This document shows positions 11,606 through 12,542 of a stretch of DNA of 64,000 bases, piece by piece. The first letter of the stretch is position 1. Each line of letters begins with the position of its first letter. The stretch is from Salinivirgaceae bacterium (GTDB lineage Bacteria > Bacteroidota > Bacteroidia > Bacteroidales > SZUA-534): assembly GCA_016284875.1 (NCBI GenBank), contig JAEEPS010000004.1, positions 11,785-75,784 on the forward strand, given 5' to 3'. The notes beneath the pieces were generated by a model. The model searched no databases, was not told the DNA's origin, and saw only the letters and a program-made list of their open reading frames with translations. The translations under genes and the position numbers were made by a program.

Positions 11606-11833
11606 TCAGGCACCAGCCTTTTCTGTCATATCCCGATATAAGTCGGCAGGACCGAGGTGCCACAGTTTTGTCTCTTCCTGCTCCATATGTTTGTAGGTGT
11701 CTGACAGATACACTGCTTTGATAGCATCGATAAGGCTGACATTGCTGTGCTCCTGCACAAAACCAGCCATTCGGCTCACCTTCGATGGCAGCAACAAGTA
11801 CAAGTTCTGCTGGGTTATTTCTCCAATCATCAT
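11606..11833 (-). CDS. Small DUF3791-like protein (second copy)
   Basis: This is a 75-aa ORF overlapping the DUF3990 stop by 4 nt. Its size and position match the small partner genes that flank DUF3990. Similarity to the first copy is weak. Confidence 0.55.
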   Translation of the reverse strand: MMIGEITQQNLYLLLPSKVSRMAGFVQEHSNVSLIDAIKAVYLSDTYKHMEQEETKLWHLGPADLYRDMTEKAGA

Positions 11834-12321
11834 ATCCTTATCTCCTTTGCTTCAGCAAATATAATGCTTTTGAGCGAACGCGCAGTATGAAACAGATATT
11901 GGTCGATGAGTGAATATGTGCGCAGTTCTGCAATTAGCGCCTGTTTACCTATCACGCCACCCTCATACAATGCGAAAGCCGCATACACACGGTCGTTAGC
12001 CACAGGTCCATACACTATATCATAGTCGTGAGTAAATCCTTCCTGCATACGATTTGCCATCACAAAATCAACCCATTCTTCGGTGGGAGCCTGAAACGAT
12101 ATTGTTTTTAGTGATTGCATTGCATCGGTATCAAACTCATACACATTCACATAGCCAGTGTCCACTTTGTTTTCTTTCATACGCCGCTGCACCCACCGCA
12201 ACACTTGGTCGTACGATGTGGTTGTGTAGAATCCGTTTCCATAATCGAGTGTGCGCTTTGCTACTCTTATTTCAGGATTCTCAACCTTCTCTATGCTTCC
12301 GTGGTATAGTTTGATTTTCAT
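11830..12321 (-). CDS. DUF3990 domain protein (possible ART-fold)
   Basis: The N-terminus reads MKIKLYHGSIEKVENPEIRVAKRTLDYGNGFYTTTSYDQ, typical of DUF3990. It has 4-nt overlaps with both neighbouring small genes. Confidence 0.75.
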   Translation of the reverse strand: MKIKLYHGSIEKVENPEIRVAKRTLDYGNGFYTTTSYDQVLRWVQRRMKENKVDTGYVNVYEFDTDAMQSLKTISFQAPTEEWVDFVMANRMQEGFTHDYDIVYGPVANDRVYAAFALYEGGVIGKQALIAELRTYSLIDQYLFHTARSLKSIIFAEAKEIRI

Positions 12322-12542
12322 TTATTTTTCTTTTCTCTGATGCCAATATACTCATCAATATCTTCAAGTATCCACTGACAACTCTGTGTATGCAGTACAT
12401 CGTAGTTGTCTTCCAGATAACCGAGCACGCCAAATTTGTCGAGTTTCAGCATAGCCTGCTCGCCAGTCAGTTTTTTGGCATTCTTGTATTGCTCAATGCA
12501 GAACGATACAAAATAGGCAATGTCTTGCTCTCTGCTGCTCAT
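12318..12542 (-). CDS. DUF3791 domain protein
   Basis: The 74-aa sequence IAYFVSFCIEQYKNAKKLTGEQAMLKLDKFGVLGYLEDNYDVLHTQ matches the DUF3791 pattern. It lies directly upstream of DUF3990. Confidence 0.7.
   Translation of the reverse strand: MSSREQDIAYFVSFCIEQYKNAKKLTGEQAMLKLDKFGVLGYLEDNYDVLHTQSCQWILEDIDEYIGIREKKNK

Follow-up and report, generated by a model that had tools for sequence, protein, structure and literature searches.

Toxins with the ADP-ribosyltransferase (ART) fold, such as DarT, ParT and those of the RES family, have well-established roles as effectors in bacterial immunity and in toxin-antitoxin (TA) biology. Here we describe a cassette of three genes (A, B and C) in a stretch of 64,000 nucleotides from a Salinivirgaceae bacterium (contig JAEEPS010000004.1, positions 11,785 to 75,784), which was analysed whole and is called the window below. 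The cassette lies at window positions 11606-12542, upstream of a type I restriction-modification (R-M) operon, and its middle gene encodes a DUF3990 protein with a predicted ART fold. The triplet is a member of PDC-M13, a catalogued but uncharacterised defence candidate.

PDC-M13 is the closest described system. The PDC candidates, 145 in number, were predicted from genes that lie inside BREX, DISARM and type I R-M loci (Payne et al. 2024, bioRxiv 10.1101/2024.01.29.577857), and PDC-M13 itself is a prediction of guilt by embedding. Two PDC-M13 cassettes were catalogued, FAM_00109>>FAM_00403>>FAM_00080 (257 instances) and FAM_00403>>FAM_00080>>FAM_00109 (112 instances). Seven Hma-embedded systems were validated, PDC-M13 not among these, and the main text gives neither a mechanism nor a domain analysis for PDC-M13; ties to other defence systems are looser for these embedding-derived candidates than for enrichment-derived ones (bioRxiv 10.1101/2024.01.29.577857). 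A rumen survey counted 3324 PDC-M13 loci in 6530 genomes, and reportedly few PADLOC candidates occur more often in rumen genomes (PMC13356809). The DUF3990 family is very widespread: clustering at 90% identity leaves 4600 clusters, and at 50% identity there are 2889 representatives.

The cassette and its borders in the window are as follows.

12318-12542, minus strand: gene A, 74 aa, DUF3791; candidate neutraliser or regulatory partner
11830-12321, minus strand: gene B, 163 aa, DUF3990; predicted ART-fold enzyme, candidate effector or toxin
11606-11833, minus strand: gene C, 75 aa, unnamed helical family; second small partner
12543-12606, minus strand: cassette leader of 64 nt, 5' of gene A; presumed to hold the cassette's own promoter
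11478-11605, minus strand: spacer of 128 nt between the cassette and hsdM, outside the conserved cassette

At the A/B and B/C junctions the plus strand reads tcat, that is, ATGA on the coding strand, and both pairs of genes overlap by 4 nt. The hsdM gene starts at 11477 on the same strand, 128 nt from gene C. An earlier reading, made from the letters alone (the sequence-only reading), had described three coupled same-strand genes at this distance from hsdM, and the coordinates of the open reading frames (ORFs) and the junction letters agreed with it. The GC content of the cassette is 43%, versus 48.7% for the window.

With the hidden Markov models (HMMs) of PADLOC-DB v2, gene A matched PDC-M13A (E 8e-34), gene B PDC-M13B (E 1.5e-61) and gene C PDC-M13C (E 1.2e-30). 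Gene B matched PDC-M10A and PDC-M42A as well. The assignment to PDC-M13 was made from these HMMs and the gene order only. The A>>B>>C order of the window corresponds to the catalogued cassette CAS_00075, and the catalogued cassettes are cyclic permutations, which fit the A-B-C and B-C-A orders seen here. With its HMM matches, both gene orders and the type I R-M association in agreement, the window triplet is a typical member. Its listing by PADLOC is independent of the sequence-only reading, which had also proposed a candidate defence module, and the triplet is not new as a candidate. The same reading had stated that no function was experimentally described for the triplet, and none was found in a literature search. 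As far as we found, what goes beyond the catalogue entry is an H-Y-Q triad accompanied by D26, R91 and D101, natural fusions of every pair of genes, and a near-identical cassette in unrelated contexts.

Gene B matched the Pfam family DUF3990 (PF13151) with E 6.5e-47 and 159.5 bits (cut-off 32.2); the match spans residues 3-153 of B and positions 1-150 of the 152 in the profile. DUF3990 belongs to Pfam's ART clan (PMC7955679), as the sequence-only reading had proposed. An AlphaFold2 model of B, computed with an alignment of 36 homologues, reached a predicted local distance difference test score (pLDDT) of 91.1 and a predicted template modelling score (pTM) of 0.85. When the PDB was searched with this model by Foldseek, the six best matches were all ARTs: ParT (6d0i_C), three PARP2 catalytic domains, PARP14 and Arr-2. 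ParT was at the top (E 8.7e-3, probability 0.96, template modelling score (TM) 0.44); PARP2 reached a probability of 0.95, and exotoxin A stood further down the list.

Among the predicted viral structures of BFVD, the best match of B was a 202-aa protein (E 4e-11, TM 0.73). The entry carries no name; it is probably GP30 of Geobacillus virus E3, a sequence homologue of equal length. Further BFVD matches were ART-PolyVal domains (probability 1.0), PARP catalytic domains and one DarT. One relative of B, P0432, gave a sub-threshold Pfam ART-PolyVal match across the His-Tyr region. An ART fold of gene B is supported by the confident predicted model, the ART best matches, the H-Y-Q triad and the clan membership. 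A fold shared by B and the DarT of the window is likewise predicted, from the structure model and the clan assignment only.

Residue conservation was followed in 150 representatives, each standing for one 50%-identity cluster, aligned to the family HMM. The H...Y...Q/E pattern proposed by the sequence-only reading was present in gene B as LYHGS (5-9), GFYTTT (30-35) and DQYLF (140-144). The residues H7 (122/124), D26 (130/131), Y32 (131/131), R91 (146/146), D101 (143/143) and Q141 (128/129) were near-invariant, as were G8, G28, F31, G105, A108, D110 and a GPVA[ND]D loop. In the model, H7 lies in a strand of residues 2-9, in an HG[ST] context, and Y32 in the strand 30-34, in a GFY context. Q141 opens a later strand and has an aromatic or aliphatic residue after it. 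The LYHGS and GFYTT of B resemble the motifs that bind nicotinamide adenine dinucleotide (NAD+) in PARP ('HGS') and diphtheria toxin ('GFYST').

The third position of the triad was Gln in 128 of 129 representatives, not Glu or Asp, and the adjacent D140 was variable (D in 82, N in 31). Diphtheria toxin (H21, Y54/Y65, E148) and PARP1 (H862, Y896, E988) have the H-Y-E pattern. From its motif and strand position, we infer Q141 to be the equivalent of the catalytic Glu, so that B would show a pattern of the H-Y-E type with Gln in place of Glu. With Gln at the catalytic position, enzymatic activity of B cannot be assumed. Some ARTs are active yet lack the Glu: Arr has H-Y-D, AcrIF11 H-H-D and ParT R-Y-N (PMC8120803). 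We consider it likely that B is an NAD+-using enzyme of the ART fold.

Gene A is a member of Pfam DUF3791 (PF12668; E 2.9e-21, 75.6 bits, gathering cut-off 25), with 350 homologue clusters. Gene C, on the other hand, had no Pfam match even at E<=10, and two of its relatives (P0239 and P0202) likewise gave no DUF3791 match at E<=10. There were 207 homologue clusters of gene C, and a precomputed Pfam domain was present in none of the 120 listed. The DUF3791-DUF3990-DUF3791 arrangement given by the sequence-only reading was correct for A and B and wrong for C, which is a separate unnamed family apart from DUF3791.

The two small proteins were compared directly. BLASTP of gene A against gene C gave a weak, colinear match (E 0.023), and hhalign of the A-family and C-family alignments gave E 0.12. 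With profiles enlarged by adding divergent copies, homologues from plasmids and the domains of fusions, the hhalign result was E 6.5e-4 with a probability of 27.5% over 73 columns, end to end. The best sub-threshold DUF3791 scores for C-type sequences came from the C-terminal domain of P0440 (E 0.049) and a Lactobacillus C-like protein (E 0.2). Gene C may be an ancient paralogue of DUF3791, to judge from these alignments.

The AlphaFold2 model of gene C (pLDDT 91.7) was all-helical, with four helices. Foldseek with this model gave non-specific helical matches only (K+ channel pores, E about 1), which pointed to neither an antitoxin nor a DNA-binding fold. When the PDB was searched with sequence profiles of families A and C, chance matches only were found, and searches of NCBIfam and PHROGs with proteins A, B and C gave nothing significant.

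The A and C proteins of the window have no recognisable DNA-binding domain. A gene with an HTH_3 (helix-turn-helix, HTH) domain was the upstream neighbour in three relatives. In a second, divergent cassette on an Alistipes contig (L072:4925-5353, minus strand), an Xre-type HTH_3 domain (E 1.7e-14) is fused to DUF3791 (E 4e-22) in a protein of 142 aa. By analogy, this fusion is antitoxin-like, having the build typical of an autoregulating antitoxin.

To compare the cassette between genomes, 80 loci were taken from different GTDB species, mostly rumen and gut Bacteroidales, with 61-98% identity to B. They were collected with a close alignment of B, and the set is biased to near relatives, mainly Bacteroidales. 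The A-B-C order was present in 79 of the 80 loci, and in the single exception it is cut by the contig end. Preservation of the order in 79 species-level loci puts the association of the genes far beyond chance.

The same three families were found together on plasmids. A 17-kb non-mobilizable plasmid of Clostridium botulinum carries an A-B-C triplet (C-family match E 6.7e-21), and a Lactobacillus plasmid carries B followed by a C-like gene. On the Moraxella osloensis plasmid NZ_CP069435.1 (L094:5208-9203), B-C-A are translationally coupled between hsdM and hsdS. This operon reads HTH regulator, hsdM, DUF3990, C-like gene, DUF3791 and hsdS (in two pieces), and the junctions from hsdM through the first hsdS piece are 4-nt overlaps throughout. 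The three-family set is conserved across three phyla.

All pairs of genes also occur as fusions. A is fused to B in P0073 and P0453, and the C-family part forms the C-terminus of a DUF3990 protein in P0369 and P0440. C is fused to A in a 149-aa protein on a B. ovatus plasmid, which precedes B and matches both HMMs (E 7e-13 and 4e-18). These natural fusions indicate, indirectly but strongly, that the three proteins act together, which on the sequence evidence we regard as very likely; they probably form a complex. One feature expected of a type II TA locus was found here: a small gene adjoins B and is coupled to it by ATGA, and the genes make up an autonomous unit that is conserved and mobile together.

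Extra divergent copies, as a pair or a triplet, were present in four loci (L027, L028, L072 and L079). On one Bacteroidales contig (L028:3598-6047), two A-B-C triplets stand in tandem, one near that of the window and the other divergent. The additional copies in L027 and L079 are A-B pairs in which C was undetected.

The C-A fusion lies on the Bacteroides ovatus plasmid NZ_CP041397.1 (L084:582-2642), followed by DUF3990; next come a hypothetical protein of 86 aa and a protein of the zeta-toxin family. Two toxin-type modules are side by side at this place. Near-identical arrangements are present on many Bacteroides and Parabacteroides plasmids.

The limits of the cassette were seen when 24 kb of the window were compared by blastn with the two closest loci. 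L003 was 98.2% identical over 981 bp (window 12606-11626 = L003:9716-10696) and L004 was 94.7% identical over 982 bp (window 12600-11619 = L004:9722-10703), and the flanks had no homology in either comparison. The homology begins 64 nt 5' of gene A and ends about 20 nt short of the gene C stop. In L003 a ResIII/DdmD-like helicase stands beside the cassette, as does a different type I methylase; the L004 copy has pyruvate:ferredoxin oxidoreductase genes on one side and LptD, MoxR and peptidyl-prolyl isomerase (PPIase) genes on the other. This suggested that the cassette moves on its own, because about 1 kb is 95-98% identical within unrelated flanks. It is a self-contained, horizontally mobile unit of about 1 kb. 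When direct and inverted repeats were sought at the cassette flanks, only short matches at chance level were found, and no recombinase.

Plasmid records with a DUF3990 homologue numbered 89, of which 42 came from Bacteroides, 15 from Clostridium, 5 from Moraxella and the rest from others; a further 10 records were of phages. In Geobacillus virus E3, GP30 (L085:2968-3576) is a solitary 202-aa DUF3990 homologue near an integrase-like gene. An HMM search found no A or C partner for it; the next protein, the 54-aa GP31, is vaguely C-like by eye only.

Bacteroidetes promoters follow a consensus different from that of sigma-70. A sigma-70 promoter scan was uninformative (7 sites versus 5.2 expected). 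When the upstream regions of 76 loci were aligned, a box of the TAnnTTTG type was common to many, and the nearest match in the window was TATAATTG. TAnnTTTG is the Bacteroidetes -7 promoter motif. This suggests that the cassette carries its own promoter.

Just 5' of the cassette, a basic ORF of 47 aa (MKHQIRFILDSRFKKSDSARIRMKPYIDIMNDARKTSMNSLNNKHQK) at 12593-12736 on the minus strand spans the homology boundary at 12606. It is an annotated gene in the public assembly L002 and not in L001, and it had no Pfam match. It may be a gene remnant.

The surroundings of the 80 loci were searched, up to 10 kb on each side, with the proteins of the window's island as queries. An HsdM-like gene was within 10 kb in one locus only (L003, 5.8 kb off and not adjacent), and the operon of the window was kept in none. 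DUF1016 genes were present in three loci, two as immediate neighbours and one 7.4 kb away. The 71 immediate downstream neighbours matched 113 Pfam families and the 71 upstream ones 98, with no family in more than three members. PADLOC matches among the neighbours listed were PDC-S02 (twice) and DdmD-like, Cas9, PDC-S23, DpdF, PDC-S05 and PsyrT (once each). One further relative was flanked by a Ser/Thr kinase and an MMPL transporter.

The adjacency to R-M and DarTG, which the sequence-only reading had used as an argument, proved weak in this comparison, in which near-identical copies stand elsewhere. It reflects a local insertion of the cassette into a defence island and not a functional operon link. 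Embedding of the cassette in type I R-M loci is occasional rather than obligatory, and recurs in Moraxella. In a DUF3990 protein of 281 aa (P0432), the 100 N-terminal residues look like the conserved C-terminus of HsdS (Methylase_S E 0.03, weak). This protein may have arisen as a fused gene call at a further copy embedded in R-M.

Among characterised systems, the cassette resembles ParST (RES-Xre) in several respects. ParT is a small ART-fold toxin (about 160 aa) that is neutralised when a small protein from the same overlapping operon binds it. It is the best PDB match of B, and one relative of the cassette has DUF3791 joined to an Xre-type HTH. On the other hand, B has no RES Pfam match, its triad is H-Y-Q whereas that of ParT is R-Y-N (PMC8120803), and the TM of the match was 0.44. 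The cassette also has two small partners, neither of them Xre/COG5642, and ParT modifies Prs.

DarTG likewise has an ART-fold effector of H-Y-E-like class. It is both a TA and an anti-phage system and is embedded in type I R-M loci. Unlike DarT, B has no DarT match in Pfam or PADLOC and has Q141 where DarT has the catalytic Glu. DarG carries an enzymatic macrodomain that reverses the modification, whereas the cassette contains no macrodomain.

The likeness to the diphtheria-toxin/PARP ARTs and ART-PolyVal lies in the structural matches (PARP2, PARP14, exotoxin A and ART-PolyVal) and in Q141-Y142, which in the model is on the strand expected for the catalytic E-Y. B differs from them in having Gln for Glu, in D26, R91, D101 and the GPVA[ND]D loop, and in being a stand-alone protein of about 160 aa with dedicated small partners. 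DUF3990 also occurs in a polymorphic toxin of the Rhs kind in an effector-plus-protector arrangement: in the Serratia marcescens Rhs5 effector it is the C-terminal domain, and a putative immunity gene comes after it (PMC4524185). B differs in being a cytoplasmic stand-alone protein with no delivery module. By analogy of function, the cassette appears most like the ART toxin modules of the ParST and DarTG types; by membership it belongs to neither.

Our preferred reading is that of a self-contained PDC-M13 cassette in which the predicted ART-fold protein B and its small partners work in a toxin-antitoxin-like or abortive-infection mode. We give this reading an even chance. In the resting cell, the small partners A and C would bind B and keep it inactive, and the HTH-fused variants of the partner may repress the operon as well. 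A trigger, for example phage infection or loss of the cassette, would free B, which would then modify or deplete an essential target with the use of NAD+ and bring growth to a halt. In this scheme the toxicity of B, its use of NAD+, its neutralisation by A and/or C, its trigger and its target are inferred, as is any phage phenotype of the cassette. That B is a toxin neutralised by its partners is slightly favoured; an anti-phage role of the cassette falls a little short of even. The HTH-DUF3791 fusion, the extra divergent copies, the 89 plasmid records and the adjacent zeta-toxin TA genes support toxin-antitoxin-like biology.

Several observations weigh against this reading. In Glu-to-Gln exchanges of diphtheria toxin and PARP1, activity is strongly lowered, and by analogy the transferase activity of B, with its invariant Gln, may be weak, altered or none. 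The ART matches of gene B in the PDB by Foldseek were modest (TM about 0.44-0.47), none of them at E<=1e-3, and scores were likewise modest over the ART matches from the PDB and BFVD together (TM 0.41-0.51). PDB sequence-profile searches with close and diverse DUF3990 alignments returned no solved ART and chance matches only, and hhalign of the DUF3990 profile against the DarT of the window showed no similarity. The cassette contains no enzyme that removes ADP-ribose. Stable toxin-antitoxin fusions are unusual in classical type II TA systems, though fused TA defence proteins are known. A literature search found no experiment on any cassette member. Defence genes were a minority of the immediate neighbours in the relatives; the neighbours were mostly metabolic or housekeeping among the families listed, which include glycoside hydrolases, fumarase, GroEL, pyruvate:ferredoxin oxidoreductase and BspA-type leucine-rich repeat (LRR) proteins.

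The sequence-only reading had itself named scattering of the homologues in housekeeping contexts as a result that would refute it, and such scattering is largely what was found among the 80 loci. We do not take this as decisive, because scattering is just what self-contained TA or 'solo' defence cassettes should show and because R-M embedding recurs independently in Moraxella.

The scattering also bears on a purely selfish addiction cassette, one that stabilises a plasmid or island and has no anti-phage role: B would be the toxin, labile A and/or C would neutralise it, and post-segregational killing would let the cassette persist. It would be favoured by the position among housekeeping genes in most genomes, by near-identical copies across species, and by the 89 plasmid records, which include small non-mobilizable C. 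botulinum plasmids of 17-23 kb and Bacteroides conjugative plasmids on which the cassette adjoins a zeta-toxin TA. However, type I R-M embedding or adjacency recurs, in Moraxella, in the window, in L003 and, weakly, in the HsdS-fragment fusion P0432, and such embedding is the basis of the PDC-M13 listing. TA and abortive-infection roles are moreover compatible. We regard a purely selfish cassette as improbable, at about one chance in five.

The invariant Gln at the catalytic Glu position (128/129) raises another explanation, that B is a non-toxic regulatory enzyme or pseudo-enzyme. It would be a sensor of NAD+, ADP-ribose or a nucleic-acid end, or a modifier of a specific partner, with A and C as substrates or adaptors. 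D26, R91 and D101 are invariant outside the classical triad, the stable A-B, B-C and C-A fusions suggest obligate subunits over a labile antidote, and an ADP-ribosyl hydrolase is absent from the cassette, all of which would fit. A working NAD+ pocket is favoured, however, by the strict conservation of the His and Tyr, which stand in canonical HG[ST] and GFY surroundings. DUF3990 serves as an effector domain at the C-terminus of Rhs (PMC4524185), and Arr, AcrIF11 and ParT are active without Glu (PMC8120803). This explanation appears somewhat less probable again than the selfish cassette.

The phage and plasmid copies could indicate a module of counter-defence or of conflict between mobile elements, with an ART that modifies a host defence protein or a component of a competitor, like phage Alt/Mod and AcrIF11. 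There are 10 phage records, including GP30 of Geobacillus virus E3; the best viral structural relatives are ART-PolyVal domains from polyvalent proteins of phages and conjugative elements; and the family is frequent on conjugative plasmids. Yet by far most copies stand on chromosomes as three-gene cassettes, away from phage or plasmid genes. For the lone phage copy no A or C partner was detected, and small partners fit self-protection better than attack. We see only a small chance for this explanation.

The last candidate, in which the triplet would serve the neighbouring type I R-M/DarTG operon as an accessory and be transcribed together with hsdM, was rejected as barely credible and largely refuted by the comparative data (80 loci; L003/L004 flanks): the triplet stands on the same strand 128 nt 5' of hsdM, and a terminator-like site sought on the coding strand of the spacer 11478-11605 was not found, but the HsdM homologue was within 10 kb in 1 of 80 loci (5.8 kb) and the operon kept in none, the 95-98% identical copies have different flanks with homology that stops inside gene C before the spacer, and the promoter-like box upstream of many relatives fits a promoter of its own.

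A bolder reading may also be put forward. The cassettes would form a new tripartite class of ART immunity, in which an H-Y-Q ART is restrained by two distantly related helical proteins, one the inhibitor and the other a phage sensor or regulator, with a target that is new for ART toxins. We think this rather doubtful. If true, it would be a major uncharacterised arm of phage defence in the gut microbiome, given the abundance of PDC-M13 in rumen and gut Bacteroidales (PMC13356809). If B proved active despite its Gln, it would inform on ART catalysis without the canonical glutamate. The handles for experiments are a cassette of about 1 kb, likely with its own promoter; the invariant residues H7, D26, Y32, R91, D101 and Q141; and natural two-gene and fused variants.

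Downstream of the cassette, the window carries the following genes.

9669-11477, minus strand: hsdM, downstream of the cassette
8537-9679, minus strand: DUF1016/YhcG nuclease, PADLOC PDC-S02
7569-8414, minus strand: REase-ARP-like protein, within the type I R-M operon
6308-7630, minus strand: hsdS, type I R-M subunit
5016-6311, minus strand: PDDEXK_4 protein, PDC-S26
4209-4847, minus strand: DarT, about 7 kb from the cassette
3140-4252, minus strand: DarG; the listed ORF shares 44 nt with the DarT ORF
103-3120, minus strand: hsdR, type I R-M subunit

The region 103-11477 (minus strand) is a composite defence island, a single type I R-M operon with five genes inserted among its subunits. The DarT at 4209-4847 is where the sequence-only reading had placed it, some 7 kb away.

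The upstream flank of the cassette contains the following genes.

12983-13318, plus strand: small MazG-type nucleotide pyrophosphohydrolase
13415-15763, minus strand: BlaR1-type M56 peptidase, paired with a BlaI-type repressor
15865-16236, minus strand: BlaI-type repressor

Beyond the BlaI-type repressor lie suf iron-sulfur (Fe-S) assembly genes and ATP synthase genes, and the island adjoins ordinary housekeeping genes on this side.

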